Shown here in pieces: positions 1 to 31,431 of a stretch of 64,000 nt of DNA. A program made the position numbers and the translations under genes. The notes under the pieces were generated by a model that was not told the origin of the DNA, did no database searches, and saw nothing but the letters and a program-made list of their open reading frames with translations. The first letter of the stretch is position 1; every line of letters begins with the position of its first letter. Source of the DNA: Naegleria gruberi (taxonomy: Eukaryota); assembly GCA_000004985.1 (NCBI GenBank), contig GG738862.1; one strand, given 5' to 3'.

Positions 1-113
1 TCAACAGAGTATACGATTCAACAGGTGAATTCTTCCAATATTTCAATGTAAATAAGCTTCCAGTTCAGTCAACCATCAATTTAAGCTCTCTATTCTCAGC
101 CATCAACATAACA

Positions 114-566
114 ATGCAAGGTTTCAAAGTGGGAATCACCACAGATCATGTTTCCCAATTCAAAAGACTACCAGCACTTTTCCTAATCCACAACAATGCA
201 GTGATGGAATATAAATTTGTGGACATGCAGGAAAAGCCAGAATATATTGAATTTATGATTGATGCGAATAGTGAGGAATGCGTGGATTCAGAGATGGAAT
301 CATCAATTTCTGGAATTGAATATGATCTCAATACTCCAGATCAAGATTTTGATAAGGAGAATAAGGAAATTATTACTACCATTCATCCAGAGCAGTTTGT
401 CTATACGAATAATGTCCAGCAACCATCAAATCAATATAGAGAGCTTTCGGATAATTTCTCAAAACAAAAAGAGGGTCAAAAGAAGGGTATTCGTAGAACT
501 TTATCATGTTTCTTTGGACAAAACAATTCACCAACTTGTTCGCCAAGAAAGAGAAGTATCAGGTAG
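114..566 (+). CDS. hypothetical protein (150 aa); 5' end may lie upstream of the window
   Basis: ATG-initiated ORF with non-repetitive protein-like composition and TAG stop. No recognisable domain. Confidence 0.35.
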   Translation: MQGFKVGITTDHVSQFKRLPALFLIHNNAVMEYKFVDMQEKPEYIEFMIDANSEECVDSEMESSISGIEYDLNTPDQDFDKENKEIITTIHPEQFVYTNNVQQPSNQYRELSDNFSKQKEGQKKGIRRTLSCFFGQNNSPTCSPRKRSIR

Positions 567-579
567 ATATCTACAGATT

Positions 580-1245
580 TCAAAATCCACTACCACCACC
601 AAAATTAAAACCACTACCGTTACTTGGTTTAATTGGTGGTTTAGTTCCAAATGTAGTACTAGTACTTCCAAAAGCAAATCCAGTAGTAGGTTTAGTTTCC
701 ACATTTTCCAAATATTTCGAAATCAATTGTTGATGGGACTTTGAAATCAATTCAGTCAATCCATCCATACTGTAATATCTTGCCTCAACAAACAAACTCT
801 CCAAAGCATGATTATCACTAGGAAGCACAAAATTCTTCACATCACCTCCACTTCTCAAATAATTCAAAATATATCTGAAATAAGTTGGATCTCTATCAAT
901 AAAAATTGATTCATCAGCCGAATCTTTGATTAAATTATGTAAACCAGAGACAAGTGAATTGAAATAATTTGGATCATAGTGCGTATTTTCTAATGATTTT
1001 GAAGGTTTGATCAATTTTTGAGTTAAAGTTTCTTTGGAAACTGCAAAAATAACGCCTCCAACGTTTAGTTTAATTATTTCACCATCTTGGAATTCGTATT
1101 TGGTGGAAACTTTTTTCAATTCAAGGAATTCGTGTTCTCTCTTTGTCATGGAAGTGCTCCAAGAGGAAAGTTTTTCTTCTAGTTGTTTCATAGTTTCCGA
1201 AATATCTTGTTTGATGGTGTCAAAAGTATTCTCAGAGTTGTTCAT
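580..1245 (-). CDS. BTB/POZ (T1/KCTD-type tetramerisation) domain protein with Gly/Phe-rich C-terminal tail, 221 aa
   Basis: The ORF contains the K+ channel tetramerisation-type BTB signature (IKLNVGGVIFAVSKETL ... IFIDRDPTYFRYILNYLRSG ... LESLFVEARYYSMDGL). The C-terminus is FG/GF-rich. ATG start with A-rich context; TGA stop. Confidence 0.75.
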   Translation of the reverse strand: MNNSENTFDTIKQDISETMKQLEEKLSSWSTSMTKREHEFLELKKVSTKYEFQDGEIIKLNVGGVIFAVSKETLTQKLIKPSKSLENTHYDPNYFNSLVSGLHNLIKDSADESIFIDRDPTYFRYILNYLRSGGDVKNFVLPSDNHALESLFVEARYYSMDGLTELISKSHQQLISKYLENVETKPTTGFAFGSTSTTFGTKPPIKPSNGSGFNFGGGSGF

Positions 1246-1412
1246 TTTTTTTGATTAGTTTCGAATTCCACGAAACCATTCCAATAATTTAATAATCCAA
1301 TTTATTATTTGTTTTGTCATCTCGTATTTACCTGGTCTGTAACCAAAACATTTAGATGAAGTAGGTTATTGTCCATTTCTCAACTGATTTAACAAAAAGA
1401 AGTTAATTTGAA

Positions 1413-1536
1413 AAAGACTACAGCACCACAGGTTCCCAAGTTGTCTCCAACCTCAGTACTGATGTGGCTCGACGATGCTTAACTTCTCAAATCGGACGGG
1501 ATGAGGTGCATTCATCGTGATATGGCCGTAGCCATC
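1413..1536 (-). rRNA. 5S rRNA: 5S rRNA gene, copy 1 of 3
   Basis: The reverse complement reads xTGGCTACGGCCATATCACGATGAATGCACCTCATCCCGTCCGATTTGAGAAGTTAAGCATCGTCGAGCCACATCAGTACTGAGGTTGGAGACAACTTGGGAACCTGTGGTGCTGTAGTCTTT. This matches the universal 5S blocks (ACGGCCATA, CCCGTCCGAT, GAAGTTAAGC, AGTACT, GGGAA, GTGCTGTAG) and the terminal helix I pairing. It is followed on the RNA strand by a TTTTT run. Two near-identical copies lie at 24400–24523 and 55537–55659. Confidence 0.85.
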
Positions 1537-1939
1537 TACAATCTTAAATTCTGAAATATATTCAAAATGTTAAACTAAATGTAGCGTCCCACACCAGAAA
1601 CATTTACAATTGGAAGAAAATTATGATCAGAAACAAGATTTTCGAATTGGTGTTTCTGGAGTGACTGGTGTAGTTGGAGTAGCCACAACAATTTTCACAA
1701 CACTGAACGAATCACTTTGAATATTTTTGGATAGATATTGTTAAATTTGAAGATTCAAATGCCAAACCATCACATTGAGTACAAATTATAATCCCCTCCT
1801 CTCCGCAAGCTCCACCAATACATCATTTCCAAAATGCAATGACACTAATCTCAGTAACCTTCTTAAAAATCTTCAAATTTTCCCTCTTTCACTGAATTTT
1901 GTGAATAGAAAACCAAAAAAAAAGAGTTGCCACACTAAC

Positions 1940-4900
1940 ATGCCACCATTGATCAGTTCATCATCTCTAAATGGTGATGAATTGGAAGAACTTGATCTCA
2001 ATGAAGATTATGCTAGTGGTGAAGTGTTTAAGAATGGGAATGATGATGATTCGTCTCCAGAGCCATTGCATAAGGGAGCTTCTTGGATATCAATCTTGTT
2101 CTTTATGTTTGCTGGCAAGTTGATGAGTATTGGCTTTAGAAGGGCTGGTGAGAATTATTTGATGAAAATGATAAAGAACATGTTGAATCGTGTTGGAATC
2201 TTTGGTCGATTTGAGATTAGAAAGGAGGAGGGAATGAATCATGGGGATATTCCCAAGTTGGCCGAAAGTGAAAAGTCAAGCAATCATTGTGAATTATTCG
2301 AAAGAGAATATAGAGAATTGTATCGTGAGAGGGGCAATTATCGTGAAGATGGAGGATTTAGAAAGAATTATGGAGGTCTATTGTTGAGAGTAATTGAGAG
2401 AGTTTATAGAAGAAGAGGATTGTATACAGTTTCTTTGTGGAGAGTTGCAGAAATGATATGTTTGTACATGTCACCACTCATTCTCTATATTTTACTCGAG
2501 TCAATCAAAGTTGATGAGTATGTGAAAAGTGCTATACCAGCAGCCACTCAATATTTAATTCCAACATCTTCTTACGGAATATTGAGTAATGACACTGTCA
2601 TTGCATCCAATTTCACAATGAACAATGAAACAAATTGGTTTCAAGAAAACTTGCCACTCTCAAATATTTTCTTCCAGTTAACTTTGGTACTTTTTTGCAA
2701 CTTCTAAAATTTGGATTCCACTCATTGGAGCTCTTCAAGGTTCAATCCTGCAAAAGTTGAATAGAATCAAGAGTGTGGAAAGAAGAAAATTCAAAAGTGG
2801 TGAGTTGAACAATCTATTTGCCATAGACACCAGAAGTGTAGCCATGGATGGTATTGATATTCATGAAGCTTGGTTAATGCCATTGACCTTAATTGTTGGT
2901 ATTGTGTTGGTTTTCGTATTTTTTGGATATAGCTCACTTGTTGGTGTTCTTGCAATGATTATATGTGGACCAGTTCTTCCATTTTTGGGTAAATATCAAA
3001 CTAGTTTTGCAGGCAAAGCTGCACAATTCAGAGATGAAAGAATCAAACACATGAGTGAAATATTGAATGGTATTAGAATTGTTAAATTTTATGTTTTTGA
3101 AGATAAGATGAAAGAAAAGGTTAATCAAGCAAGAGAAAAGGAATATTCACTCCTCCGAAAGTATGTTACTGTAATGAGTGGATATTGCTTTACTTCATCC
3201 CTGATGGCCATTGTTGGAAGTGGAGCTACTTTTGTGACTTTCTACTATGCAGGTGGAGATTTGACTTTACCTAAAATGTTTACTGGACTAGTGTTGTTTG
3301 GAACCTTTAGATTACCATTGTTGCATTTACCTTGGGCCATTTCAAACTTGGTTTTCGCCTATGTGAGTGCCAAACGTATTGGTAGATTCTTGTTTAGTGA
3401 AGATACTGAGAAATTGCCACATGATCATGAAAATAAGGCAAACTTGTGGGAATTTGATGAAGAACAAACAGAATTTTCGTCCATTATGGATAATGACACT
3501 GCTATTGAATGTAAGGATGCTTCCATTGGATGGTCAGAAGAGGAAGCTCCAACCCTCACTGATTTAAATTTGAAAATTGAGAGAGGAAAGCTCTACTGTG
3601 TCATTGGTAATACTGGTAGTGGAAAATCAACCTTAATTTCCTCCATTTATGGTGAATCTGTTGTAAAGAGCGGAAAAGTTAAAGTTAATCCATTGTGTAA
3701 TATTTCACTCAGTGATGAAACCCCATGGTTGATCAATGCATCTGTAAGGGAAAATATTGTCTTTGATAAGAATTTAACTTTTGACAGGGAAAGATATAAT
3801 AGAATATTGGATGTTTGTCAATTAAGAGATGATCTCAGTCGATTCCCAAATTATGATAAGACTGAAATTGGTTTTTCTGGAATTAATCTTTCAGGAGGTC
3901 AAAAACATAGAATTAGTTTAGCCAGAGCTTGTTACAGTAATTCTGAAATTGTCTTGATGGATTCCACACTCAACTCAATTGATGCCAAATTGTGTAGAAA
4001 GATTTTCAATGAATGCATTTGTGGATTTTTGAAGGATAGAACTAGAATTCTCGTTACACATTCACTTCAATTATTGGAAATGGCTGATGAAGTCATTGTT
4101 TTTGAGAATGGAAAGTTGATTGCTAAAGGGTCTTTGAAGGAAATTAAGAATTCCTATGACTTTTCCAAACTAATCTCTGAAGAAAAGGAAGAAAGTGAAA
4201 CAGAAGAGAATGAAGTAACAGAAAAGGATATGAAACAAGACGAAAAGAAAGGTCAACTCGTCGCTGCAGAAGATAAGAGCTATGGTGAAGTTAGTTGGTC
4301 TGTCTTTATGACCTATATCCGTCGGTGTGGAATTTTCTTAACTGTCATCAGTCTCCTTTTGAATGTAATGTCAATGGGTGCAAAAACAGCAAGTCAAGTC
4401 TGGATATCTGTTATGAATAGTGACATGCTTAGCTTACCTCTGGTTGCCTATGTTTGGGTTTTCTTCTCTTTTGGATTAATGGACTGTTTCATCATTTTCT
4501 TTAAGGAACTAAGCTTAGGATTTGCCACATTGAAAGGTTCTAACAATCTTCATAGAAGTATGCTGAATAACATTCTGAGAGCACCAATTCAATTCTTTGA
4601 TCAGAATCCAGTCGGAAGAATATTGAATAGATTCACTCAAGATTTGGAAACTTTGGATAATATGGTCATGTTTGCTTCGGATTTTATTAGCAATGTATTG
4701 AATATCATCTTTACCTTAACTCTAATTTCTGTAATTAATCCAATGTTTTTAATTGTGGTTGTTCCAATTGGTTTTGCATTTTACATAATTCAAGAATATT
4801 ATAGGACTACATCAAGAGAACTTAGAAGATTGGAATCGATTTCAAAGAGTCCTGTAATGTCACATTTCAATTCTTGTCTGGAAGGCGTCAATACTGTCAA

Positions 4901-6138
4901 GGCATCTCTTGTACATTCGAATATTTATGAGGATAGTTTTAACAAGATTGACTTTGCAAATAAGCATACCTTTAACAGATTTATGGTGAACAGATGGTTG
5001 GGTGTTAGAATCCATCTCAGTAAGTATTTTCACATTAACATTATTGCTCATCTTCACAGTTTCTCAATCTGTTTTGTTTTTTACTGCTATCTTTGCTATC
5101 ATTGCCAAACATACTCAAGAAATTAGTAGCCCAGCTTTCCTTGTATTGACCATTTCAAACTCTCTTCAGTTGAGTGATTGTTTCCAATCACTAGTTCGTT
5201 CGTTTGTTGAAGTTGAAAGTAACATGACTTGCGTGGAGAGAATTGTGTACTATGCTCAAAGTATCCCACAAGAAGCTGCCTACGATAAAGAAGGTGATCC
5301 AACCACAAGAGAATGGCCAACTAAGGGACACATTCAATTAGATCAATTGTCGGTAAGATACAGAGATGATTTGGATCCAGTTTTGAAGAATCTCGATTTG
5401 GATATCAAAGCAGGCACCAAAGTTGGTGTTGTAGGAAGGTATGTTTGAATATTTCTAACTTTCAAAATTAATATATAACATGAATATAGAACTGGAAGTG
5501 GAAAGAGTACTTTATTGATTTCTCTATTCAGATTCCTTGAAGCCAATGAAGGTAGCATCTCAATCGATGGTCTAGATATTTCCAATATTGGTTTGAGAAC
5601 TTTACGTAAAGCATTATTAATCATTCCTCAACAACCTGTTCTATTCTCTGGATCTATTCGATACAATTTGGATCCTTTCGATGAATTTGAGGATTATGAA
5701 ATATGGAATGCCCTCGAACGAGTTCATATGAAAGAAAAGATTCAACCACTCCAACTCTCCTTCACTGTTACTGAGAATGGAAGCAATTTTTCAATTGGTG
5801 AAAGACAATTACTCTCCCTTAGTAGATGTATTTTGAGGAAGGCAAATATTATCATCTTTGATGAATCCACTGCCTTTGTAGATCATAATAGTGATGAGTT
5901 GGTTCAGAAGGTTGTTAGGGAGGAATTTAAGGATAGTACAATCATAACCGTTGCTCACAGATTGGACACCATCATTGATTCGGATTGTATTGTATTTATG
6001 AAGGAGGGTGAAATTATAGAAACTGGAAGTCCAAAGGAATTACTCTTAGATGAAAGATCGAATTTCTCCTCTCTTGTGAGGGAAACTGGTAAACAATACT
6101 CTGACCACTTGAAGAACAAAGCTTTCAAGCTTGCTTAA
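1940..6138 (+). CDS. ABC transporter, ABCC/MRP subfamily (TMD–NBD–TMD–NBD); at least 4 exons
   Basis: ORFs 1775–2707, 2757–5126, 5002–5448 and 5515–6138 join into one MRP-like protein. NBD1 has Walker A GNTGSGKST and signature LSGGQKHRISLARA. TMD2 contains the MRP-conserved segment (NRWLGVRIHL ... FTAIFAII ... SNMTCVERI), and NBD2 reads VGVVGR|TGSGKSTL ... SIGERQLLSLSRC ... IIFDESTA. Introns: 5020–5059 (40 nt, GTAAGT..AG) and 5439–5489 (51 nt, GTATGT..AG). Both restore frame and are anchored to ORF ends. A further small intron is needed near 2687–2729 to join the first two ORFs; its exact position is uncertain. The first ATG in frame is at 1940 (MPPLISSS...); the ORF-track start at 1775 is a non-ATG codon. 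Stop TAA at 6136–6138. Confidence 0.85.
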
Positions 6139-6812
6139 TAATTTTTTAAATAAACCACAATTCGAAAGATGCAATTTTCATGAAACCTCACAACAACTAA
6201 GGAATTAAGGTGAACAACAACGAGAGATAAGGGAACAATACAGCAAAATACCATCCATTGAACGGACAGAGCCACCATTCAGATGACTGTTTCCTGTTCA
6301 TTCTCTCGTTTCATCTGAGGAAGTGGCCTGTCTTTTAGTATCTTTTTTCATGACCAAACTGTGATTGAAGAGGACTGCTAGCTAATGAATTTTGGGTTCA
6401 TCATTTCGAAAAAGAATGTGCTTAGTGGAAAAACATGATAGTTGAACTTGGCTTTACAACGTAAACTTATTTATCCATTTGAGGATCTCTTAATTTCCAA
6501 ACAATTTTCCCAAAATTGCCTCATAAATTATCAACCTATCATCCCTCATCTTGAAATTATTGAAATATTTTAAGCCAATGATTGTTTTAAGTTGTTTACA
6601 TGTTAGAGTACTGTAACGTAAACTTGTAACAAGATTTTGTGCGCATTCCACTACATTCTTCAGAGGTCACTACCGATACTGCTTCTTGTTCACACCAGGG
6701 ATGATATCGAGGATTTTGTTGAGTTTTTCACAAACACAACAACAGAAAAAAACGAACAAATTGAGGATTTGAGGATCTTTGATAACAATTTTGAAGAGTA
6801 ATATATAGCAAG

Positions 6813-8349
6813 ATGAGTGATATTGCAAGCGATTTTGAAACTGTACCAGAACCATACAAGATTAAGGTAGTAGAACCAATTAAATTAATTGCAAGACAGG
6901 AGAGAGAAGTTGCCATTAAGGAAGCTGGCCTCAATCAATTCTTATTAAAATCTGATGATGTTTTCATTGACTTATTAACGGACAGGTAAGTGGTATTATC
7001 TTGTTTCAAACCTATATAAAATCGGAACTTATTCAACTTTATCAATTTGTTACAGTGGTACAGGTGCAATGAGTCAAAACCAGTGGGCTGGGATGATGCT
7101 TGGTGATGAATCATACACTGGAAGGTTTGTTTTCATTTTCTTCTTTTAACCAAATGATGTAATAATAACTATTAATACATAATATGTAATCAGCCGTAAT
7201 TATTATAATCTCCAAAAGAGTGTGGAAGATATCTTGGGATTTAAATACTATTGTCCAACCCATCAAGGAAGAGGTGCTGAAAATATCTTGTTTGGTATCA
7301 TCATTAAGAAGGGTCAATATATTCTCGGAAATTATCACTTTGATACTACAAAGGCACATATTGAATTGAATTCTGGTTTGGCTGTCAATTTAATTCATGA
7401 AAGAGCTTATAACACATCTGTTGAACATCCATTTAAGGGAAATATTGATCTTGAAAAGTTGGAACACTTTATTGTGGAAAAGACTCCAGAAAAGATTGCA
7501 TTCTTGTTAATGACCATCACTTGTAATAGTGTTGGTGGTCAACCTGTTTCAATGGAAAATCTTCGTGGTGCCTATCAAGTTGCAAAGAAGTATAATTTAC
7601 CAATCTTTATTGATGCTGCTCGTTTTGCAGAGAATGCTTACTTTATTAAGAAGAGAGAAGCAGGTTATGAAAATAAGACAATTACAGAAATTGTTTGAGA
7701 AATGTTCTCATACAGTGATGGTTGTACAATGAGTGCCAAGAAGGATGGTCTTGTCAATATTGGTGGTATGATTGGTATTAAGGAGGATGAAGAATTATTC
7801 AAAAAGGTTAAACAAAGATGTGTTCCAATGGAAGGTTTCCCAACTTATGGTGGTTTGGCTGGCAGAGATATGGAAGCTTTGGCAATTGGTATGAGAGAAG
7901 TTGTAGATGAAGCTTATTTGGCTTCTCGTATCGATCAAGTTGAATATTTGGGAAGAAAGTTGAAAGAAGCTGGCATTCCTATTCAACAACCGTTGGGAGG
8001 TCATGCAGTTTTCATCAATGCTAAAGAATTCTTGCCTCACATTCCTCAAACTCAATATCCAGCTCAAGCTCTCTGTGTGGAATTGTATCTTGAGGGTGGT
8101 GTTAGAGCTGTTGAAGTGGGAACTTTATTGGCAGGTAGAGATCCAGAAACTGGTTTGGAAATTTTACCTGAACTCGATCTTTTACGTTTGACAATACCAA
8201 GAAGAGTTTATACAAATAATCACATGGATTGGGTTGCCACTTGCTTGAAGAGAATTGCTGCCAGAAAGGACAGGATTAGAGGGTTGAAGATTGTTGAAGA
8301 ACCACCAATTTTACGTCACTTTATGGCAAGATTTGATTGGGCAGAATAA
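6813..8349 (+). CDS. tnaA: tryptophanase (tryptophan indole-lyase, beta-eliminating lyase family); 3 exons, interrupted by an in-frame TGA at 7696–7698
   Basis: The protein aligns along its whole length to bacterial TnaA. Matching blocks include [15 protein letters not shown]..., [125 protein letters not shown] and [18 protein letters not shown]. Exons are 6813–6985, 7056–7124 and 7194–8349, with introns 6986–7055 (GTAAGT..AG) and 7125–7193 (GTTTGT..AG). Exon 3 restores the conserved ...GS|RNYY... alignment. A TGA stop sits in frame exactly at the position of a conserved Arg (E. coli ...ITRETYKY..., here ...ITEIV*EMFSYS...). The gene is either a pseudogene, a sequencing error (CGA to TGA) or a read-through case. 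Exon 1 start is accurate to ±1 nt. Confidence 0.8.
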
Positions 8350-8722
8350 ATTATTTTTATTTTGTAAAGTTAATATAATATTTAAGATTAACAGACGAAC
8401 ATTCGACAATGTAGCTACCATTGAATCCATTCAAACAAACAAAAAAATGAGCGTGAATATATAAAATGGTCGACCAATTTTCTATTGAATTGTATGATTG
8501 GAATAGATTCTCCAAGAATGTAAGTACACGATTAGTTTCGAATAATTAAATGTGAAATGAAATGCAGGTATTGCTCGATAGAACTGCTTTGATTTTTAAA
8601 CCTTATGATGTCACTCCAAAAGAAAACACTTGGATTGGGATGAAAGTGGAAAAGTGGAAGATCTGATTCCACAACTGAATAAACCCAGATCAAACCAAAA
8701 CCATAACTTCTCTCAAAACTTC

Positions 8723-8795
8723 TGCTGACGGACGGGATCGAACCGGCGACCAATGGCTTATTAGACCAACGCTCTACCGACTGAGCTACGCCAGC
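8723..8795 (-). tRNA. tRNA-Ile: tRNA-Ile (anticodon AAU)
   Basis: The reverse complement GCTGGCGTAGCTCAGTCGGTAGAGCGTTGGTCTAATAAGCCATTGGTCGCCGGTTCGATCCCGTCCGTCAGCA folds as a cloverleaf. The acceptor stem is GCTGGCG/CGTCAGC with one G·U pair. A and B boxes are present (TAGCTCAGTCGG, GGTTCGATCC). The anticodon loop CTAATAA gives anticodon AAT. It is similar to eukaryotic tRNA-Ile(AAU). One mismatch in the T-stem. Confidence 0.8.
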
Positions 8796-8869
8796 TTATT
8801 GATAATAATTGGTTTTAATAATTCTGTAAATGATGCTATGTCATTTGACATTTTAAATATATAACTCAA

Positions 8870-8990
8870 ATTGAAATTGTTCTCAATAAAATGTAGGGTT
8901 TGTTTAGAAATTGTTCTCAATAAAATGTAACATAACGTAGCTCTTTCAACGTTAAAATTATTAAATACCAACTGAGCTACGCCAGCTTCT
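8870..8990. repeat. tandem ~23-bp direct repeat (GAAATTGTTCTCAATAAAATGTA x2) plus a 21-nt duplicate of the tRNA-Ile 5' acceptor/D-arm segment (8969–8989)
   Basis: aaattgttctcaataaaatgta occurs twice at ~8872–8895 and ~8910–8933. ccaactgagctacgccagctt at 8969–8989 matches the 5' end of the adjacent tRNA-Ile gene (ccgactgagctacgccagctt) with one mismatch, but lacks anticodon and T arms. Confidence 0.5.
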
Positions 8991-9215
8991 AGAAGACCCT
9001 TAATGAACTTAGCAAATACCTTACCATGGTGGACAAGCTAAAAGTACTATTTTTGAACATTTTGGTAAATTGTGGTTGGTTCTCTTCTAACATGAATACA
9101 GAAGATGTCACATCTCTTTAGAACATCATAAAACTTGACAAGAAAAAATAAGCAAACAAAGCAGATCTGCAAGATTTTGAAAATTAATTTCGGCGGAACT
9201 ATTCATCAAAAAAAC

Positions 9216-10553
9216 ATGGAGAAAAAACTCGAGTCTCTCCAACGAGAAGAAATATTTTCAGATGATATTTGTTTTGAAATAATTTCCATGATTGATGATT
9301 CGTGGTTTATTTTGAATAATTGTTCCTTGATTTCAAAACAATTCTTTAATGTGATCAAGGAACGTTCAAAACTTTTTATTGAATTTAAAAAAAAATTTAC
9401 AGAAAAAAGAATTGAACTATTCACAAAGAGTCAATTTATGAATAGTATTGTTAAAGTTAAATTTTCAACAAATTTGTTTGTCTCTATTGAAAATCACAAA
9501 TTCATAAGTGAAATGAAACAATTAACTTCACTTAATATTTCTAACAATCAAATTAATGATGAAACAGCCAAATCAATAATTGAAATGAAACGATTAACAT
9601 CACTTGATATTGGTGGAAATCAAATTGGTGATGAAGGAATCAAATTAATTAGTGAAATGAAACAATTAACATTACTTGATATTAGTGGAAATAGTATTGG
9701 TGATAAAGGAGTCAAACCAATTAGTAAAATGAAACAATTAACATCACTTAATATTTATAACAACGAAATTGGTGTAGCAGGATCCAAATTTATAATTGAA
9801 ATGAAACAATTAACATCACTTGATATAAGCTACAATGAAATTGGTGATGAAGGAGCCAAATCAATAAGTGAATTGAAACAATTAACATCACTTACTGTTA
9901 GTGGAAATCAAATTGGTGATGAAGGAATCAAATTAATTAGTGAAATGAAACAATTAACATTACTTGATATTAGTGGAAATAGTATTGGTGATAAAGGAGT
10001 CAAACCAATTAGTAAAATGAAACAATTAACATCACTTAATATTTATAACAACGAAATTGGTGTAGCAGGATCCAAATTTATAATTGAAATGAAACAATTA
10101 ACATCACTTGATATAAGCTACAATGAAATTGGTGATGAAGGAGCCAAATCAATAAGTGAAATGAAACAATTAACATCACTTACTATTAGTGGAAATCAAA
10201 TTGGTGATGAAGGAATCAAATTAATTAGTGAAATGAAACAATTAACATTACTTGATATTAGTGGAAAATCAGTTGGTGATAAAGGAGTCAAATCAATTAG
10301 TAAAATGAAACAATTAACATCACTTACTATTTATACCAATGAAATTGGTGTAGCAGGAGCCAAATTTATAAGTGAAATGAAACAATTAACATCACTTGAT
10401 ATAAGCTACAATGAAATTGGTGATGAAGGAGCAAAATCAATAAGTGAATTGAAACAATTAACATTACTTGATATTAGTGGAAATGGAATTGGTGATGAAG
10501 GATCCAAATTTATAATTGGAATGAAACAATTAAAATCACTTGATATTCAGTAG
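9216..10553 (+). CDS. F-box-like / leucine-rich-repeat (RNI-type) protein, 445 aa
   Basis: The N-terminus is F-box-like (EIFSDDICFEIISMIDD..LISKQFFNVIKERSKL). It is followed by ~14 consecutive 24-residue RNI-like LRRs (LTSLDISGNQIGDEGIKLISEMKQ...). First ATG at 9216 with an A-rich context; TAG stop. Confidence 0.8.
   Translation: MEKKLESLQREEIFSDDICFEIISMIDDSWFILNNCSLISKQFFNVIKERSKLFIEFKKKFTEKRIELFTKSQFMNSIVKVKFSTNLFVSIENHKFISEMKQLTSLNISNNQINDETAKSIIEMKRLTSLDIGGNQIGDEGIKLISEMKQLTLLDISGNSIGDKGVKPISKMKQLTSLNIYNNEIGVAGSKFIIEMKQLTSLDISYNEIGDEGAKSISELKQLTSLTVSGNQIGDEGIKLISEMKQLTLLDISGNSIGDKGVKPISKMKQLTSLNIYNNEIGVAGSKFIIEMKQLTSLDISYNEIGDEGAKSISEMKQLTSLTISGNQIGDEGIKLISEMKQLTLLDISGKSVGDKGVKSISKMKQLTSLTIYTNEIGVAGAKFISEMKQLTSLDISYNEIGDEGAKSISELKQLTLLDISGNGIGDEGSKFIIGMKQLKSLDIQ
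9598..10480. repeat. intragenic tandem repeat, 288-bp unit (4 LRRs) x3; first two units near-identical
   Basis: The DNA block tcacttgatattggtggaaatcaaattggtgatgaaggaatcaaattaattagtgaaatgaaacaattaacattacttgatattagtggaaatagtattggtgataaagga... recurs almost base-for-base 288 bp downstream. A third, diverged copy follows. Confidence 0.7.
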
Positions 10554-10927
10554 TATTATACAGTCAATCCTTTGTTAAGCACTAACATATGGTTCCTTTA
10601 AATTACGATTAGTTAACCTAATATAAATGTAGCAAGTATTTTAACAGTCCAACCTGCATTACAATGGACAGTGTTATTGTAAAAGGAGTGGGATTGAAAC
10701 AAGCAAGGAATTTCATAGATTGGGAGTAACTGGCTGTCAGGAATCAACAGGCAACAGAATTAATCGAAAAGGAAAATGGAATGATAGATTAATGACTTAA
10801 AAATCGATTTGACACTCTATCATCAATCGAGCTATTGTTCCATCTTCCTGGTTGTTACTAACTTCCACCATAAAAATTGCAATCAACTTGCTGCATTGAG
10901 TTCCACTTAAAAAAAATAGGCAGAACA

Positions 10928-12148
10928 ATGTTCCCATTTCACAAACGGAAAACCCAACTGTTGGACGAAACTTCATTGGAAACAGTGGATATTTTGTCTC
11001 TTGTTTTTCAATTTCTCGAGCTGAAAGAATTATTCGCTCTCCAAAAAGTATCACCCTTCTTCTACCGAACCATTGAACATTTGAAATCCTTACTGATCCG
11101 ACCAATATATGAAGTTGGTTTAGTTTCGTCCGATAAGAAACAATTATCGGAATTTCTTCAACTTACTTTAAAATCAGAATTAATTAGTTCAGCCACAAAG
11201 GAAAACCCACAAAAAGTTTCAAGTACTAGATACACTTATTATTCTACAACCGAAATCGACATGACAGATAAAAATGATGGCAATCAGCTCAAAAGTGTGA
11301 AATTTGGAGAGCATCATATGATTCATGCTTTTAACAAGGTTGAAAAGGAGTTTGTCTTTAAGAATGATAGATTTAGAGTATTCTTTTATCCATTGTATTG
11401 TGAAAAGAGTACGAGTTTATCACATGATGATTATCAACGACTGGATGGGTTCATATTTTTGAATCCAAACAGCAAAGATGGATATTCAACAATGCCGAAT
11501 GGATGTAGTTTTTGTGCAACACTCTTGGATTATAATAATTCTTCAGTTGCCAATGAAACAGTACTAATGCCAGTAAGAAATTTCGGATCTTTTAAAGTTG
11601 AGAAAGTGAGTGAAAGATATTCGATAGAACAATCAATTCTCGACTGTATTAATTACATTTCAGAGAACTCAAATCGATCAATTCAATTGAACTCAATAGG
11701 AGATGGCTTAAAATCATGTTTATTAGAAAAAATTTCATTAATCATTAAGGAACCCAATGATGAAATGGTTGCCACTAAAATATCAGATCTATTCAAGAAC
11801 AAATACACACTCAAAGAGCTGATACTCTCAGAGAAAGTGAGATACATGACCAGAAAATTGAATTTCTTCAATTATCCACACAATGTCCAATTCAGTCTTT
11901 TGAAAAGACTTTACACAGCTCATTTGGGAAATGAAAATGTTAAATTCAAAGATGATCTCTATGCCATTCAGGTTATTTTCAATCAGCAATTCAATTCTAG
12001 AAAAAGGGATTCATACGATGACCATTTGGTGGAAATGAAAACTACGCTCTCATTCAATTTAGTATCTCAGGAAATTAAGTTCGAATACAAGAATATTACA
12101 AGAGCAAGTACTATTGGCATTAGTAATAAAAAGTGCATCATTTGTTAG
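10928..12148 (+). CDS. F-box-like hypothetical protein, 406 aa, C-terminal ...KKCIIC
   Basis: The N-terminus has an F-box-like helix pattern (TVDILSLVFQFLELKELFALQKVSPFFYRTIEHL). Long non-repetitive ORF; first ATG at 10928; TAG stop. Confidence 0.6.
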   Translation: MFPFHKRKTQLLDETSLETVDILSLVFQFLELKELFALQKVSPFFYRTIEHLKSLLIRPIYEVGLVSSDKKQLSEFLQLTLKSELISSATKENPQKVSSTRYTYYSTTEIDMTDKNDGNQLKSVKFGEHHMIHAFNKVEKEFVFKNDRFRVFFYPLYCEKSTSLSHDDYQRLDGFIFLNPNSKDGYSTMPNGCSFCATLLDYNNSSVANETVLMPVRNFGSFKVEKVSERYSIEQSILDCINYISENSNRSIQLNSIGDGLKSCLLEKISLIIKEPNDEMVATKISDLFKNKYTLKELILSEKVRYMTRKLNFFNYPHNVQFSLLKRLYTAHLGNENVKFKDDLYAIQVIFNQQFNSRKRDSYDDHLVEMKTTLSFNLVSQEIKFEYKNITRASTIGISNKKCIIC

Positions 12149-12363
12149 TCAATTCCAATTAAGAAAATTCTTCTTAGATCGGAGCAAAATATAAATTTTA
12201 ATTTTAATTAATATTTTAAAAAATGTTGTATTAACAACTTCATCCATCTACCAAATCATCATCACGAATAACAAAATAAATCATCAAAAACAGATATTCT
12301 TTACCTTCATGAAAAACACTAAACCATCATCAATCCTTCTAGTATGGGATTAGCATTTAAAAA

Positions 12364-13446
12364 ATGGGCAATAATCAAACCACTTCTCACAGATCCCTTC
12401 CTACCGAGCATGCATCTTTCTCCAATTCTTCTCGCGAATATGCCAATCAATACATAATGATCGCAGGTGGTCCATCAGTAGTAATTTATCAAGGCTTGGT
12501 TGATCAAATAATTTCTATCGAAAATCGAATAGAAAATGCTGCTAATTATGAGAAGGTAAAGAGTGAATGTCTGAAAGGTATTCAGCAACGTTTGGTGAAA
12601 TATTTCCCTGTTCATTTTCATGATACAGTTTCGGAAAAGATAGAAGAACAATTGGTTGACCTGTGGCATAGCCCCAATTTTAAAGAGGAATACTTTGCGA
12701 ATAGATTCCAGGTAGATCCATACTTGGTCTTGCCAACTGTATTTAATAATTTGGAGAGAGGAATCAAATTTAATTTGAAAAGAACTTGCTTGTTCCAACC
12801 AGCAGGTAGACAATATTATTTCACAACATGCTATTCGAAAACAACTGATAATTTTCCACACAGCCGTAATCAAAAGTTGACATTTGAATTATTTGCTAAT
12901 TGTTTTTCTGCTGATACTTGGGCTGATGTAGTTGGAGCATCATTTTCTCTATCTGACTATGATAACAATCAATATTTAGATGAATTTTATCAAGTGTGTA
13001 GAAGATTGTCTGGATTTTCTACATACAGAATGATTTTAATATTTACTCATCTTGATGTTCTCAATGAAAAGATAAAGTTGGGACTAATTAACTATGGAGG
13101 AGATAAAGATATAGAAATTCGAAAAGAATTCAATCATATTCCAAAAGAATGTGCTCTCATCATTGAATATCTCATCAAAGAAGCCAAAAAAAATATAGAA
13201 ATGAATCCAAGCCATGACTTTCCCAATAGGACATTGGAATACCACATTGTAAATACATCAAGTGACAGTGATATGAAAGAATTATTGGATTGTATTTGTA
13301 TTGGAGCAAATTCTAAGAGAAAATGCTTCATATCCTCTAAAATTGAAATGCCACCTTTCTCATATCCTAACACCAGATTCAAGAGCAACATGCACAGAAC
13401 CTCAGAACTAAATCAGTTTTGTGATATTGCAATATTGCTAAATTGA
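12364..13446 (+). CDS. G-alpha-like protein with degenerate nucleotide-binding motifs (pseudo-GTPase), N-terminal MG... myristoylation-type start, 360 aa
   Basis: Sequence blocks are collinear with heterotrimeric G-alpha subunits. The P-loop position reads IMIAGGPSVVIY (versus LLLLGAGESGKST). The switch II/DVGGQ position reads FELFANCFSADTWADV. The block ASFSLSDYDNNQYLDEFY matches CVALSDYD. The NKXD position reads ILIFTHLDVLNEKIK (versus ILFLNKKDLFEEKI). The C-terminal position reads HIVNTSSDSDMKELLDCI (versus FTCATDTKNVQFVFDAV). The protein starts MGNNQT. No intron is needed. Confidence 0.6.
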   Translation: MGNNQTTSHRSLPTEHASFSNSSREYANQYIMIAGGPSVVIYQGLVDQIISIENRIENAANYEKVKSECLKGIQQRLVKYFPVHFHDTVSEKIEEQLVDLWHSPNFKEEYFANRFQVDPYLVLPTVFNNLERGIKFNLKRTCLFQPAGRQYYFTTCYSKTTDNFPHSRNQKLTFELFANCFSADTWADVVGASFSLSDYDNNQYLDEFYQVCRRLSGFSTYRMILIFTHLDVLNEKIKLGLINYGGDKDIEIRKEFNHIPKECALIIEYLIKEAKKNIEMNPSHDFPNRTLEYHIVNTSSDSDMKELLDCICIGANSKRKCFISSKIEMPPFSYPNTRFKSNMHRTSELNQFCDIAILLN

Positions 13447-13492
13447 CTTTAGTTTTCCATTTCCTAAAGGTCAGAACTCTTCAAAATAAAAA

Positions 13493-14533
13493 ATGAGCCA
13501 ACAAGAAAAGGAGGAAACAGTGGCACCAACCAAAGAAGAATCACCACAGCCAGTTTTTCCCGATGATGTGATATTTGAAATTATTTCCTTCAATAATGAT
13601 TTTAAATTTACAGTAAGGAGTTGTGCGTTGGTTTCTTCACAGTGGTTTAATGTCATTTTGGAAAGATCAAAACTTTCACTCACACACAACAGTAAAAAGA
13701 AAATTAATGGCCAATTTTTACAGCGTATTGTAGCTGTCAATGGGATGAAAAAATGTGATTGTATTCCATTTCTTGATCAAGTATTTGATCTCAAGAACTT
13801 GACTACCCTTGACGTTAATTGTATGAAAATTAAAGATGAAGGAGTAAAGATAATAAGTGAAATGAAACAGTTGACCAATCTTAATGTAGGCAGCAGTGGT
13901 ATTAGTGTTGAGGGAGTCAAATATATCAGCGGCATGAATCAATTAACTAATCTCAATATAAGCCGCAATAATATACGAGCAGAAGGAGCCCGTTACGTTA
14001 GTGAAATGAAACTATTAACCAATCTTAATATTTATTTAAACGGTATTAGAGCAGAAGGTACCAAATACATCAGTGAAATGAAAGAATTGACTTGTCTTAA
14101 TATAATGAGTAATGCAATTCACGATAAAGGCGCAGAACACCTTCGTCAAATGCCTAAATTGAATACACTCAATATTAATTCAAATAGTATCAGTGTAGAA
14201 GGAGCCAAATTTATTAGTGAAATACAGTCATTAACTAATCTTGATATTGGTTTCAATACTATTGGAGATGACGGTGTCAAATTTATAAGCAAAATGGAAA
14301 AACTAACAAAACTTTATACAATGTACATTAATATTGGAGAAAAAGGAGCCAAACACATTAGTGAAATGGAACAATTAACTAGTCTCAATATTAATTCGAA
14401 TAATGTAGGAACAGAAGGAGCAAAGTACTTATGTGAAATGAAACATTTAACATATATGAATATTTGCAACAACAATGTAGACAAACAATCCCAATTTATC
14501 AAAGATGCTACAGTCTGTTTCATCCAATGCTGA
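13493..14533 (+). CDS. F-box-like / leucine-rich-repeat (RNI-type) protein, 346 aa
   Basis: The N-terminus (DDVIFEIISFNNDFKFTVRSCALVSSQWFNVILERSKL) parallels the 9216 gene. About 10 RNI-like LRRs follow (LTNLNISRNNIRAEGARYVSEMKL...). ATG at 13493; TGA stop. Confidence 0.75.
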   Translation: MSQQEKEETVAPTKEESPQPVFPDDVIFEIISFNNDFKFTVRSCALVSSQWFNVILERSKLSLTHNSKKKINGQFLQRIVAVNGMKKCDCIPFLDQVFDLKNLTTLDVNCMKIKDEGVKIISEMKQLTNLNVGSSGISVEGVKYISGMNQLTNLNISRNNIRAEGARYVSEMKLLTNLNIYLNGIRAEGTKYISEMKELTCLNIMSNAIHDKGAEHLRQMPKLNTLNINSNSISVEGAKFISEIQSLTNLDIGFNTIGDDGVKFISKMEKLTKLYTMYINIGEKGAKHISEMEQLTSLNINSNNVGTEGAKYLCEMKHLTYMNICNNNVDKQSQFIKDATVCFIQC

Positions 14534-23453: not shown

Positions 23454-23912
23454 TTAACCACCTCTCAATCTCAATACTAAATGCACAGTTGAATCCTTTT
23501 GAAGATTGTAATCACCAATAGTTCTTCCATCTTCCAATTGCTTACCGGCATAAATCAATCGTTGTTGATCTGAAGGAATACCTTCCTTATCAAATATCTT
23601 TTGTTTCATATTCTCAACAGTATCATTCGATTCCATTTCAATAGTGATTGTCTTTCCAGTTAAGGTTTTTACAAAGAGTTGCATTCCTCCTCTTAATCTC
23701 AACACCAAATGAAGAGTGGAGTCTTTTTGAATGTTGTAATCATTAATAGTTCTGCCATCTTCTAATTGTTTACCTGCAAAGATGAGTCTTTGTTGATCTG
23801 GTGAAATTCCTTCCTTATCTTGTACCTTTTGTTTCACATTTTCAATTGAATCATTAGATTCAACCTCCAAAGTGATAGTTCTTCCAGTGAGTGTCTTGAC
23901 AAATAATTGCAT
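23454..23912 (-). CDS. di-ubiquitin (two head-to-tail ubiquitin-fold repeats, each ending RLRGG), divergent from canonical ubiquitin, 152 aa
   Basis: The protein is [76 protein letters not shown] followed by [76 protein letters not shown] and a stop. L8, I44, K48, K63, H68 and the GG ends are conserved. Each repeat differs from canonical ubiquitin at roughly a dozen positions. The two repeats differ from each other at about 17 of 76 positions. Confidence 0.85.
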
Positions 23913-24399: not shown

Positions 24400-24523
24400 A
24401 AAAGACTACAGCACCACAGGTTCCCAAGTTGTCTCCAACCTCAGTACTGATGTAGCTCGACGATGCTTAACTTCTCAAATCGGACGGGATGAGGTGCATT
24501 CATCGTGATATGGCCGTAGCCAT
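24400..24523 (-). rRNA. 5S rRNA: 5S rRNA gene, copy 2 of 3
   Basis: Identical to copy 1 except one substitution (gatgtAgctcg versus gatgtGgctcg). Followed on the RNA strand by a T7 run. It shares an upstream element with copy 1 (see findings). Confidence 0.85.
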
Positions 24524-26617: not shown

Positions 26618-29600
26618 ATGACTGCAAACATCAACAAGCTTCAGTGCTGGCGGTCTTACTTGTTGATTCTTCTCTCTGTTATCCTTCTCGTTGGTGATGC
26701 ATCACCATTATCTTCATCAGCCCACTCAACATATGTTCGCTATCAGTTTGAAACTCTTGCCGGAAACCTTCAACCAGTTTTTTCTCTGTCATTCAAACAA
26801 ATTCAACAATCCAAAGTCAATCCTGATATTCTCTTCATAGTGTCTGCAAGTGATTCTCTTTACAAGTACAATCAAACAAGTGGAGAAAGGAACCTACTGG
26901 TCGGATGTGATGTGTTATCCTATAACTTGTGCATTAAAGAATCAATGGTAACCAACATTTCCCATCTGGCAACATCTGTTTCTATCTACATTACTGGATT
27001 TCATGTGATGGTTTCTTCTAATGAACAAGTAATTTATATTAGCACCGACCATCAATTGTTTCGAATGGAAAATAAGAATATTACACTCCTTTCGGCAATG
27101 TGGTCGACTAGTGATGAAAATCCAAACTTGGATGGAATGCATATTTCGGATAGTTGGTTTAGGTTTTTAAAATCAGTTGTTGTTGATGAAGATGAGAAGA
27201 CTTTATATCTTGCAGATGGACAAGTTATTAGAAAGTTGGATGTGGAAACTGGTATTTTAAAGTCCATCACAACAACAGGAGATGACCCAGTATCTAAGTT
27301 TGATGGACCTGCCAATCAGACTGTTCTTAAACTGCCACAAAAACTACTCCTTCATAATGGATTTCTTTATGGAAATGATGCATTTTCACTTTTTAAAATT
27401 AATATTCAAAGTGGATGGTTGACAGTAATAACTGGCACGATCAATTATATATTAGGTGTTAATTTTCCAGCTCCAAAATCAGGTGATAATGCTAAAAATT
27501 CAACACTTTTATCAATTCGTGGATTTCACATTATGGAGGATGATTCCATTCTAATAATTTCTGGAAATACTTTTTATCAGATCGATCAAAAAAGTGGATT
27601 ACTAACTATACTTTACAATTTTGAAGAAGCTATCTTTTTGGCAACACCCAATTTGGTATTTTCATTACAAAAGGTTTACAAATTAAATAGATTGAATTGG
27701 TCTATGGAAACAATTATAGATTCACATATTGGGGCCATTACGGATGGTTCAATAGCAAAGAATAGAAAATTCTTTGACATTTCAGCACTGACAATGAACG
27801 AAACCACTGGGGATTTACTATTTTCTGATTCATTGTCAAATTACAATCTTTACAAAGTTGATAAGGATGGAAGGTTTTTCACAGTGAATTTACAAATGTC
27901 AAACGTATCTTGTTGGAATTCCTCTATCAGAACTGATAGCTCTTTAACATTCAATCCAGTCTCTTTCCAATTGAGAAACTCTACTTTATATGTTGCCAAT
28001 TCTGGAATGCACAGTTCAATCCAAAAATTTGATCTATCTCAACAAGGATCAAGTTGCTTCTATTCAGGATCAATTTCAAGTGATAGACTTTTGCAACAAG
28101 GGAGTGGACTATCCATGTTGGTTAATAACCCTACTGGATTATATTGTAATATCAATTCTGACGAGATATTTGTTGCCGACACTGAAAACCACAGAATTCT
28201 CAAATATATTTCACATAATCTAGTTCAAGTAATTGCAGGTACTGGAAAGCAAGGTTTTTCAGGAGATGGTGGCTTAGCCATTCATGCTCAACTGAATAGA
28301 CCTCACTCAATTTCCTACGATCGTTCCAATAGAGATCTTTACATTGCAGGTATGTCATTCATTTTCATTATTTTAACATTCATAAAGATTCTGGAAATCA
28401 CAGAATTCGAAAGATTTCTTCTGATGGAACTATTTCTACAATTTTAGGAACTGGCTCGGGTGGATTTAATGGAGATGGTCTCCCTCCATTACAAACGCAA
28501 ATTAATTTCCCTAAAGGTGTTACTTACTCACCCTTTCTGGGAATTGCAATTTCTGATACCTATAACCATAGAGTGAGATTATTTAGAGAAGGAAATGTGA
28601 GCACAATATTGGGAACTGGAACATCTGGAATGAAAGTAGTGGAGGATAATCCAACAGAGACAGAGATTATTTCACCTTTTGGTCTGGTTTGGGCTGAATC
28701 AACTTCATCCCTTTACATAGCTGGTAAGTTTCGAATTTTAGTCGAACATTGACAAATTGTTTCAGATCAATTCAATCACAGAATATTACATCTCCAATAT
28801 CTATATGGTAGTGTAGCAATCATTGCAGGAACCAATTTACCTGGATATAATGGAGATGGCATGAAAGCTAACTTAGCCAAACTATTTCTTCCAAGTTCTG
28901 TAGTTTTGGCTCCTGACAATACAATTCTAATTGCAGACACTTACAATAATTTAATAAGGAAAATTAGTAATGGAATAATTTCTTCATTTGAAACAAAAAT
29001 TGGTCTTGGTCAATCCTATCAAATCAAACAACCGATTGGGTTGTGTTTAACATTATCTGGACCTTTTGTGACAACTGAAAATGCCGTTACCTCATTAAGT
29101 TCAGGCTATACCTCCAACATAATTGGAGGAAATGGAGATGGAATGAATGTTTATTATGCAGATGTTAATCCAACAAGAATGATACTCTCTCCATTTGGAA
29201 ATGAAGGATCAATGATATTTTCAGAATCGAATTCGAATAGAATAAGATATGTCGACAGTAATGGAATCATTTCAACCATTGTTGGTTGTGGAGTATTTGG
29301 ATATATGGGTGATAAATATCCTTCTCAATTTGCCTTTCTTGCTTCACCTACTGGTATAGCACTGAATCCAATAACAAATGATTTAATTTTCTGCGATACC
29401 TCCAATAATCGTATTAGAATAGCTTCTATAAATGAATTAAACGTAGTTGATACGATTGCTGGAACAGGAAATAGCGCATATGATTCAGAAGTATCAGATC
29501 CCTTACTCTCACCACTCAATAAGCCAAGAGTGGTTGCCACATTTAGCAATGGTGACATTGTCATTGGAGACACTTTAAATAATCTATTCAAGATGATTTC

Positions 29601-31431
29601 AAGGAGAGACGGAAAAATTAGAGCCATTGGTATGGGATTTGCAACTGACATGTACGTCACTAAGGATAACATTATCATCTTTTCATCAAGGGAAGAACTT
29701 ATCAAGATGGTTCCTTATTGTGATCTTGGCTATCAATTAGTTGAGAAAAATACCGACTGCATTCCAGTATGTTTTGGATTGACTGGAAATTTGACATGTA
29801 CTAGAAATGGAGAATGCACCTTACCAAATACTTGTAAATGCTCACCTGATTTCACTGGAAAAGCGTGCGAAATTCCAATTTGTTTTGGTTTACCATCCAA
29901 TTCTTCTAATGTTTGTAATAATGGAAATGGAACCTGTGTGTCACCAAATAAGTGCGTTTGTAATGATGGGTTTTATGGAGATCAGTGTCAATATCCTCTT
30001 TGTTTCTCATCATTAATAGAGGAATCATGTGGTGGAATTAATAGAGGAAGGTGTGTCCATAGAAATAAGTGTGAATGTAAGGATAATTTCACAGGTAGAC
30101 AATGTGAATATAGATCTTGTCTTGGAAAGAGTGAAGTTGACCAAAAAGTTTGCAATGGAAATGGTAGGTGTGGATCTGCAGGAAAATGCGAATGTAATTT
30201 GGGTTATTCTGGAGCAGATTGTTCTGATTTGACTCAAGTCTATGCAGTGAGCATCACAGCTGCTGTCATCTTATTAATTTTGATTATTCTAATTCTTGTT
30301 TCTTCTATTTTAGGATGGTTTTTATATAAGAGAAACAGGAGAGATCGAAAGATTATTGAAACAGAACTCTCTCTTGATGAAAGACTCTTGGCAACTACAG
30401 ATCTTGAGCTCTCCCAATTCAGCACAAGTGTTGGTTCAGGATCTCAATCATCCTCAGATGATTCTCCTTCATTTGTCATTCCACTTCACAAGCTAGGAAT
30501 GGATAAGCCAATTCGTAGATTGGGAGAAGGAGGCATGGGAAGCGTATTCATGACCAAATATAATGGAATGATTGTTGCTGTCAAGGTTTTTGATTTGAAT
30601 AATTTCAATATTTCAGAGGAAGATTTTAGAAATGAAGCCATTTTACTAAGTAGAATCAGACACCCAAATATTATAACTTTCTATGGAGTTTCTTCATCTC
30701 CTACGAAACGTTTTATAGTAATGGAATGTTTGGATCAGAGCTTGGAAAAGTTTATTTCTAAATTGGAAACTAAACTAATCAATCTTTCATTAGACCAAAA
30801 ATTGAAAATGTTATTGAATATTGCTAATGGAATTGAATATCTACATACAATGCAACCTAGAAAGATTATTCACCGTGACTTGAAACCTCAAAATATCCTT
30901 CTAGATTCGAATGGAAATTGTAAAGTTTGCGATTTTGGATTAAGCAAATCCATTTCACAAGGAACTATCTCAACAATCACTAATCAATTAGGTACTTTTT
31001 ATTATATGAGCCCAGAAATGTTTGATATTGAAGCTGTCGATCCTACTTACGCTACTGCAATTGACATTTACAGTTTCAGTATTATTGGATGGCAATTATT
31101 ATTCGAAAGCAAAGATCCTTACGTTTACAATAGTCAAGAAGTAGCTAGAAAGTTGAGCTCCAAACTACTCGAACATGTAACCTCCTACCAATTGACCAAG
31201 TTAATTTGTGAAAACAATCACAGACCTGCCATTCCATTCAATTCTCTCAAATCATGTCGTGAATGGTGTTTGGAATTTTTACCCACAACTGAACAAGAAA
31301 ATTATTCAATAGTATTCAAGTTATGCCAACTCATCAAACAATGTTGGCAAGGAAATCCAAAACTTCGACCAAGCATTGAACAAATTGTTGAACAATTACA
31401 AACCTTAGAACAAGAATTTAACAAGATTTAA
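26618..31431 (+). CDS. receptor-type protein kinase: signal peptide, large NHL-repeat ectodomain, ~5 tenascin-type EGF-like Cys repeats, one TM helix, TKL-like Ser/Thr kinase domain; 3 exons, ~1577 aa
   Basis: Exons are 26618–28349, 28388–28723 and 28766–31431. Introns are 28350–28387 (GTATGT..AAG, 38 nt) and 28724–28765 (GTAAGT..CAG, 42 nt). Both interrupt NHL motifs (LYIAG|DSGNHRIRKI; LYIAG|DQFNHRILHL) and restore frame into the ORF starting at 28861. NHL repeats (..ADT.NHRI.K...) are spread over residues ~100–950. EGF-like repeats are CxCxxGFxGxxCxxxxC (residues ~1000–1170). TM helix is VYAVSITAAVILLILIILILVSSILGWFLY. Kinase motifs are GEGGMGSV, VAVKVF, HRDLKPQNILLD, DFGLSK, YMSPE. Confidence 0.8.

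Follow-up and report, generated by a model that had tools for sequence, protein, structure and literature searches.

A predicted F-box/LRR gene of Naegleria gruberi with a recent exchange of four-repeat blocks inside its leucine-rich repeat array

The FBXL class of SCF (Skp1-Cul1-F-box) ubiquitin ligase receptors, represented by Skp2, FBXL2, FBXL5 and FBXL17 and by TIR1 and COI1 of plants, combines an F-box bearing a Leu-Pro pair with leucine-rich repeats (LRRs), which in Skp2 and the FBXL proteins follow a 26-residue, cysteine-containing unit. The GALA/RipG type III effectors of Ralstonia solanacearum, which are secreted bacterial proteins, likewise join an F-box to LRRs, here of 24 residues with Ile5, Gly6, Asp7, Gly9 and Ala10 (PMC2244805). 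Ribonuclease inhibitor is assembled from two alternating LRR types of 28-29 residues and has no F-box. Among genes with LRRs, the plant R genes, the bacterial internalins and the LRR effectors undergo unequal exchange, which duplicates or homogenises several LRRs at a time, in frame, so that their repeats become nearly identical. Here we describe a gene of the heterolobosean amoeba Naegleria gruberi, located on the plus strand at positions 9216-10553 of a 64,000-nt stretch of contig GG738862.1 (assembly GCA_000004985.1), the whole of which is referred to below as the window. Taken together, the evidence makes it quite probable that this gene encodes an FBXL-like protein with a divergent three-helix F-box, a short cap and 14.6 LRRs that form one continuous solenoid, and that the DNA of its LRRs has been subject to a recent exchange.

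The open reading frame (ORF) of the 9216 gene is intact over 445 codons, has a GC content of 31% in AT-rich DNA (the window as a whole is 30-38% GC), and encodes three successive parts. The predicted F-box occupies approximately residues 12-50 (9249-9365, plus strand), with helices at residues 16-24, 29-34/36 and 41-50. A linker and N-terminal cap (residues 51-102; 9366-9521, plus strand), conserved throughout the subfamily, leads from the F-box to the first regular LRR, and is modelled by AlphaFold2 (AF2) with strands at residues 53-57 and 78-83 and helices at 63-70 and 91-99. The LRR domain (9522-10550, plus strand) comprises 14 full repeats of 24 residues and a partial repeat of seven, with the consensus LTSLDISGNEIGDEGAKSISEMKQ, and is of the GALA/CC type. 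The AF2 model of the entire protein, built with 14 family sequences, has a mean predicted local distance difference test (pLDDT) score of 92.5. No exact or near-identical entry was retrieved from a collection of 15 billion proteins; the top matches were NEG-M paralogues at 63-64% identity, the nearest being NAEGRDRAFT_64117 and NAEGRDRAFT_66053, both on other scaffolds, whose N-termini are 80-84% identical to that of the 9216 protein. The gene is apparently absent from the public N. gruberi protein sets, though its neighbour at 10928-12148 is annotated. A tRNA gene on the other strand (8723-8795, minus strand) precedes the start codon by approximately 420 bp; it is one of three in the window (the others at 46509-46582 and 59008-59078, both plus strand).

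Pfam searches with the 9216 protein returned LRR families only, led by LRR_6 (E 1.6e-65). All 14 full units are uniformly 24 residues long, and the consensus, read from its Asn (N-x-I-G-D-E-G-A-K-x-I-S-E-M-K-Q-L-T-S-L-D-I-S-x), contains Ile5, Gly6, Asp7, Gly9 and Ala10, with an apolar residue other than Leu, Met, at position 16. The GALA-LRRs have been defined within the CC-LRR subfamily by a length of 24 residues, Ile5, Gly6, Asp7, Gly or Ala at position 9, Ala10 and the lack of a conserved Leu16 (Kajava et al. 2008, PMC2244805), and the repeats of the 9216 protein agree with this GALA/GL-type CC-LRR pattern throughout. The AF2 model shows an uninterrupted LRR solenoid at pLDDT values above 90, and the top Foldseek match in the PDB was a solved GALA structure, the LRR domain of Ralstonia RipG4 (9j7j; E 1.8e-21, TMt 0.77, 28% identity). 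Ribonuclease inhibitor gave the best global superposition (TM 0.78-0.80) and shares the strong LRR_6 match, and FBXL2-SKP1 and COI1-ASK1 were also retrieved. The ‘RNI-type’ (ribonuclease inhibitor type) label given to these repeats by the initial annotation is accordingly apt at the superfamily level only, as the 24-residue GALA/CC repeats do not alternate between 28 and 29 residues.

The resemblance to the GALA proteins has its bounds. Sequence identity between these and the 9216 protein is just 25-29%, position 16 is a conserved Met in the latter, and the 9216 gene, being a nuclear locus of N. gruberi, is not a member of the Ralstonia GALA/RipG effector family. A special link to the Ralstonia GALA F-boxes was also considered, and was rejected because an hhalign comparison of the subfamily N-terminal profile with one GALA protein (P0095) found no match.

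The DNA encoding the LRRs forms a single tandem array, identified by Tandem Repeats Finder (TRF) at 9497-10547, with a basic period of 72 bp (14.6 copies, 78% matches) and a second period of 288 bp (3.6 copies, 93% matches). The longer period equals four 72-bp units, hence four LRRs, and the array is in frame within the ORF. Comparison of units spaced by four gives 65-72 matches in 72 positions (67-72 in all but one of the four registers); at all 72 positions, unit 3 is identical to unit 7, unit 4 to unit 8 and unit 5 to unit 9. Between adjacent units, by contrast, as between any units whose spacing is not divisible by four, there are 52-64 matches. Units separated by a multiple of the basic period thus resemble each other more closely than neighbours do, as expected of a higher-order tandem repeat. 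Three full higher-order copies can be delimited on the plus strand, designated A (units 2-5; 9573-9860), B (units 6-9; 9861-10148) and C (units 10-13; 10149-10436), followed by a partial fourth copy comprising unit 14 and a 42-nt tail at the end of the ORF (10437-10550). Copy C is the older, and 14 of its 288 positions differ from those of B. The initial annotation had described, in a slightly shifted frame, an almost perfect 288-bp duplication within this gene and an older third copy after it. Both features were recovered, the former by 283 of 288 matches between 9598-9885 and 9886-10173 and by the 288-bp period, and the latter by 274 of 288 matches (approximately 95%) between 9886-10173 and 10174-10461. 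Given a 288-bp higher-order repeat present in 3.6 copies, the array would have grown by in-frame unequal exchange of blocks of four LRRs.

The copies do not differ evenly along their length. At an offset of 288 nt there is a perfect tract of 260 nt (9613-9872 on the plus strand, identical to 9901-10160), and a perfect run of this length would arise by chance with a probability of approximately 3e-6 at the 95.2% identity that applies to the third copy. Within the first 40 nt, A and B differ at seven positions, B and C at two and A and C at five; over the remaining 248 nt there are no differences between A and B, and 12 between B and C and between A and C. Copy B is therefore a mosaic, C-like for 40 nt and thereafter identical to A for 248 nt. 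Two variants are private to copy B, 9873T and 9897G, both of which fall inside the first 40 nt and none in the other 248. From the diagnostic sites, the left boundary of the exchange can be placed at 9901-9979 (plus strand), past the last C-type site (9900) and ahead of the first A-type site (9980). The mosaic structure of copy B points to a very recent intragenic non-allelic recombination, by either gene conversion or unequal crossover, and on the basis of the sequence comparison we conclude that such an exchange has taken place inside the 9216 gene, whichever mechanism was responsible. In the latest event, 248-260 nt of the second copy would have been made identical to the first, with the start of the second copy staying like the third. 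The perfect tract is hence a sign of recent exchange, and not necessarily of an added copy.

As to mechanism, the middle copy may already have existed and been overwritten in a conversion-like manner, or the history may have had two steps; together these scenarios appear somewhat more likely than a single crossover, because the two private variants at the start of B favour them over one fresh duplication. Under a one-step duplication followed by random mutation, both private variants would fall in the 40-nt part, with the remaining 248 nt unchanged, with a probability of only approximately 0.005-0.02. The competing explanation, which is possible though less favoured, is that one unequal crossover, or an episode of replication slippage, very recently placed a new 288-bp block into a two-copy array that is actively expanding. 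A crossover between a register of the third-copy type and one of the first-copy type, with its junction at 9901-9979, predicts the mosaic that is observed; moreover, the identical stretch is approximately one period long, and the number of LRRs varies within the subfamily from four (P0015, locus L001) through approximately six to eight (P0003 and P0001) to the 14.6 of the 9216 protein. However, a single crossover also predicts that the start of B should equal the start of C, where instead there are two differences, both private to B. The choice between conversion and crossover is a weak one, because only these two sites carry it. Of the ‘very young internal tandem duplication’ proposed in the initial annotation, a very young exchange of four-LRR blocks is therefore retained, and a single clean duplication fits the mosaic and its two private variants less well; ‘ongoing repeat expansion’, which was proposed alongside it, is plausible yet not demonstrated, the recent exchange itself being well founded. 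Exchange of this kind in the 9216 gene is no different in mechanism from that in the plant and bacterial LRR genes mentioned above, and adds one more example, from a heterolobosean amoeba. Near-perfect internal repeats are also common in general, as many of the LRR proteins retrieved had 45-48 of 48 identical residues at repeat-multiple offsets.

The F-box required evidence beyond domain searches, since Pfam misses it in the 9216 protein and scores it below threshold in the paralogous protein encoded at 13493-14533, so that neither protein reaches the Pfam gathering score for an F-box. Among the N-termini of the subfamily, 7 of 11 matched the Pfam F-box-like family at E<=10 (best E 1.4e-5). 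When a profile of 33 N-termini was compared with all PDB sequences, six matches were obtained at E<=1, every one of them an F-box protein: FBXO42 (E 2.7e-4), Cdc4, three chains of GID2, and FBXL2. Alignment of the profile by hhalign with the Pfam-valid F-box of another gene in the window, at 42556-44166, was in register, with a probability of 90% and an E value of 1.5e-6, which establishes homology to F-box domains at the profile level. In AF2 models, three helices span the F-box region at pLDDT 85-96, and in a separate model of residues 1-100 the three helices have pLDDT 90-97, consistent with the three-helix fold of an F-box, and the 14.6 LRRs supply the C-terminal protein-interaction domain. 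From the profile comparisons and the predicted fold we conclude that the N-terminal domain of the 9216 protein is a divergent F-box, with Phe-Ser where Leu-Pro is usual, and through this evidence the initial assignment of both 9216 and 13493 as F-box/LRR genes is upheld. By analogy with solved proteins of the FBXL class, from whose Leu-Pro-bearing F-boxes that of the 9216 protein has diverged too far for the Pfam thresholds, the protein would dock on Skp1 in an SCF ubiquitin ligase through its F-box and bind a substrate through its LRR arc; such a role as an SCF substrate adaptor is probable, and Skp1 binding would be part of it.

Several points weigh against the reading of the 9216 gene as a whole. 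Pfam detected no F-box in its protein at E<=0.1, the F-box opens with Phe-Ser in place of the canonical Leu-Pro, and the gene has no counterpart among public protein models, so that it could be recently dead or unexpressed; in addition, the choice of conversion over crossover hangs on just two sites, and the repeat count of the array comes from a single assembly. The missing Pfam match, the Phe-Ser pair and the lack of annotation also lend themselves to another explanation, which we consider unlikely, namely that the N-terminal domain does not function as an F-box and that the protein is an LRR scaffold outside SCF ligases, or the product of a decaying gene. In keeping with this, the isolated N-terminus found no significant match in Foldseek (E 0.24-2), and ratios of non-synonymous (dN) to synonymous (dS) divergence between repeat copies are about one or higher, with a dN of 0.052 and dS of 0.044 for B and C and a dN of 0.066 and dS of 0.044 for A and C. 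Divergence between the copies is indeed mainly non-synonymous (A and B have a dN of 0.031 and a dS of 0), but the counts, at 17 differences or fewer, are too small for a claim of selection, and ratios near one between repeats of a single gene also fit diversifying LRR surfaces. A decaying or non-working domain is further opposed by the conservation of the N-terminal domain in at least 25 clusters at E<=1e-10, and by the long intact ORF in AT-rich DNA.

The possibility that the near-identical second copy was created or miscounted in assembly, and that the true number of 288-bp units is different, is improbable: a 260-nt perfect repeat within a 1-kb array is a classic site of mis-assembly, the region is apparently represented twice in the public assembly, which hints at haplotype splitting, and the ORF has no gene model, but the second copy is not a pure reuse of the first or the third, being a unique mosaic that carries two variants of its own, both the reading frame and the solenoid have been kept, and the window contains no N gaps. 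The NEG-M genome was reportedly Sanger-sequenced, and such reads, which would span more than two 288-bp units, likewise weigh against an artefact. The second representation consists of NAEGRDRAFT_76478 (XP_002668606.1), a 260-residue truncated copy of the 10928 gene with one difference (Phe to Tyr), located on a separate scaffold of 12,747 bp; the match stops at position 11707 of the window. This scaffold is probably an alternate-haplotype fragment of the same region, corresponding by its inferred extent to approximately positions 1-11707 of the window, and would then include the LRR array.

Downstream of the 9216 gene, within the interval 9216-14533, are three further ORFs, two of which are of the F-box type. 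The first (10928-12148, plus strand) is NAEGRDRAFT_66342 (XP_002678277.1), identical over 406 residues and annotated on a scaffold of 502,116 bp. This identity places the window within the published NEG-M genome of N. gruberi. It has a borderline F-box at residues 21-53 (Pfam F-box 20.2 bits, gathering threshold 20.5) and an orphan C-terminal region ending in CIIC; for its C-terminal 350 residues, no homologue was found outside its own cluster among 5.8 billion proteins. The protein terminates in KKCIIC, a CaaX-like motif that we take to recall the prenylated F-box proteins FBXL2 and Legionella AnkB. Membership of this gene in the N-terminal subfamily of the 9216 gene was considered and rejected. 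The second ORF (12364-13446, 360 residues), which lies inside the interval and had gone unmentioned in the initial annotation, is not an F-box gene; its C-terminal part is weakly G-alpha-like (30.1 bits, threshold 48.8), and the ORF could encode a G-alpha that has degenerated or diverged. Its product starts with MGNNQ, which could be an N-myristoylation site, and its stop codon is 46 bp ahead of the ATG of the next gene.

That next gene (13493-14533, plus strand) is the paralogous F-box/LRR gene, encoding 346 residues with approximately 9.5 LRRs (LRR_6 E 8.5e-26). Its F-box-like match (E 0.023) scores 14.9 bits against a gathering threshold of 24.3, and the subfamily N-terminal hidden Markov model (HMM) matches it at E 1.8e-27. 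The protein is 45% identical to the 9216 protein overall and has the same architecture, with the first LRR starting from residue 103 in both; its repeats have no higher-order period. Three F-box-type genes (9216, 10928 and 13493) do therefore lie within 5.3 kb, as had been noted initially. Their juxtaposition is real, but they do not constitute a young tandem gene array, given that 9216 and 13493 are 45% identical and the nearest relatives of 9216 elsewhere are at 63-64%. Judged by these sequences, the cluster is a juxtaposition of old, divergent or unrelated F-box genes, and not of recent tandem copies.

Four further F-box genes had been proposed elsewhere in the window. Two of these pass the Pfam thresholds: 32003-33274 (plus strand), which belongs to another subfamily (F-box-like 29.3 bits, gathering threshold 24.3), and 42556-44166 (plus strand), an F-box and Sel1-repeat protein (F-box-like 35.6 bits; Sel1 E 6e-36). 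The latter has a Cys-rich C-terminal segment, and Sel1 repeats are an uncommon partner domain of the F-box. A third, at 51878-53818 (minus strand), is borderline (Pfam F-box 20.4 bits, gathering threshold 20.5) and has weak LRR matches, whilst for the gene at 21148 Pfam gave no match and hhalign only a weak one at the profile level (E 0.0025, probability 12%). When the subfamily profile was run against every ORF of the window, no additional members emerged.

To estimate the extent of the subfamily, the N-terminal profile was used for an exhaustive HMM search against 1.84 billion representative proteins, which retrieved 74 matches at E<=1e-3, 25 of them at E<=1e-10. Each match represents a cluster at 50% identity, in a library that carries no organism names, hence the numbers do not give a count per genome. 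The weaker matches that were inspected were proteins with the N-terminal domain and LRRs, several of them with a sub-threshold Pfam F-box. A word-indexed search with the N-terminal alignment gave one match from merely 125 scored candidates, too few for a census, and a metagenome scan with one exact and one degenerate pattern from the F-box region of 9216 found nothing. The ‘large, fast-evolving’ adaptor family inferred in the initial annotation is thus not established by the 74 clusters of this N-terminal subfamily. One paralogue from ENA (P0015, locus L001) was considered as an orthologue of the 9216 gene and rejected, because it is not syntenic and has just four LRRs; its neighbours are a gelsolin-domain gene on one side and, on the other, a gene whose product weakly matches an amino-acid transporter.

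Overall, the 9216 gene is a further member of a well-known kind of protein that has changed by a well-known mode of repeat evolution, and is in that sense an ordinary finding. LRR arrays are already well known to undergo duplication and conversion of blocks, as are F-box genes to expand in particular lineages, and the practical value of the locus is modest; a search of the literature for a study dedicated to F-box/LRR expansions in Naegleria found none. The analysis nonetheless flags a probably real F-box/LRR gene as missing from the public N. gruberi protein set, and provides a clean, datable example of the exchange of four-LRR blocks inside a gene. As this divergent subfamily is missed by the Pfam thresholds, counts of F-box genes in heteroloboseans may be underestimates. 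The reference assembly also merits checking here, in view of the near-identical fragment of a neighbouring gene on a separate 12.7-kb scaffold.

A more far-reaching interpretation, to which we attach little probability, is that the F-box/GALA-type-LRR genes of Naegleria would be lineage-specific, rapidly diversifying intracellular recognition receptors that ubiquitinate proteins of intracellular bacteria or giant viruses. Were this so, intragenic block exchange of the type seen in 9216 would make new binding surfaces, along lines also proposed for nematodes and plants, whose F-box families are expanded. A corollary that is weaker still is that amoebal, rather than plant, genes might resemble the eukaryotic source of the bacterial GALA-like LRR effectors.

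The remainder of the window includes genes for actin, a Ras GTPase and an ABC transporter, an ORF of two tandem ubiquitins, and an NHL/EGF receptor kinase. A bacterial origin of the window, from an amoeba symbiont, was considered on account of its 33% GC content and its F-box/LRR genes, and was rejected in the light of these eukaryotic genes, the dispersed 5S rRNA genes and the complete identity of the 10928 protein to an N. gruberi protein. The ubiquitin ORF (23454-23912, minus strand) encodes 152 residues with two ubiquitin units (Pfam ubiquitin E 7e-61, in two stretches), and its DNA is a tandem repeat of two 228-bp units with only 77% nucleotide identity. The NHL repeats are encoded in two adjacent ORFs, at 26618-28447 and 28861-31431, the second of which adds EGF repeats and a protein kinase domain; judging from the sequence, an intron may divide a single receptor-kinase gene here, or the two ORFs may be paralogues. 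Three dispersed 5S rRNA genes are also present, at 1415-1533, 24403-24521 and 55539-55657 (all minus strand; Rfam 103-105 bits), each inside a 170-nt repeat that is 85-89% identical among copies, and they are situated 23-31 kb apart and not in tandem.

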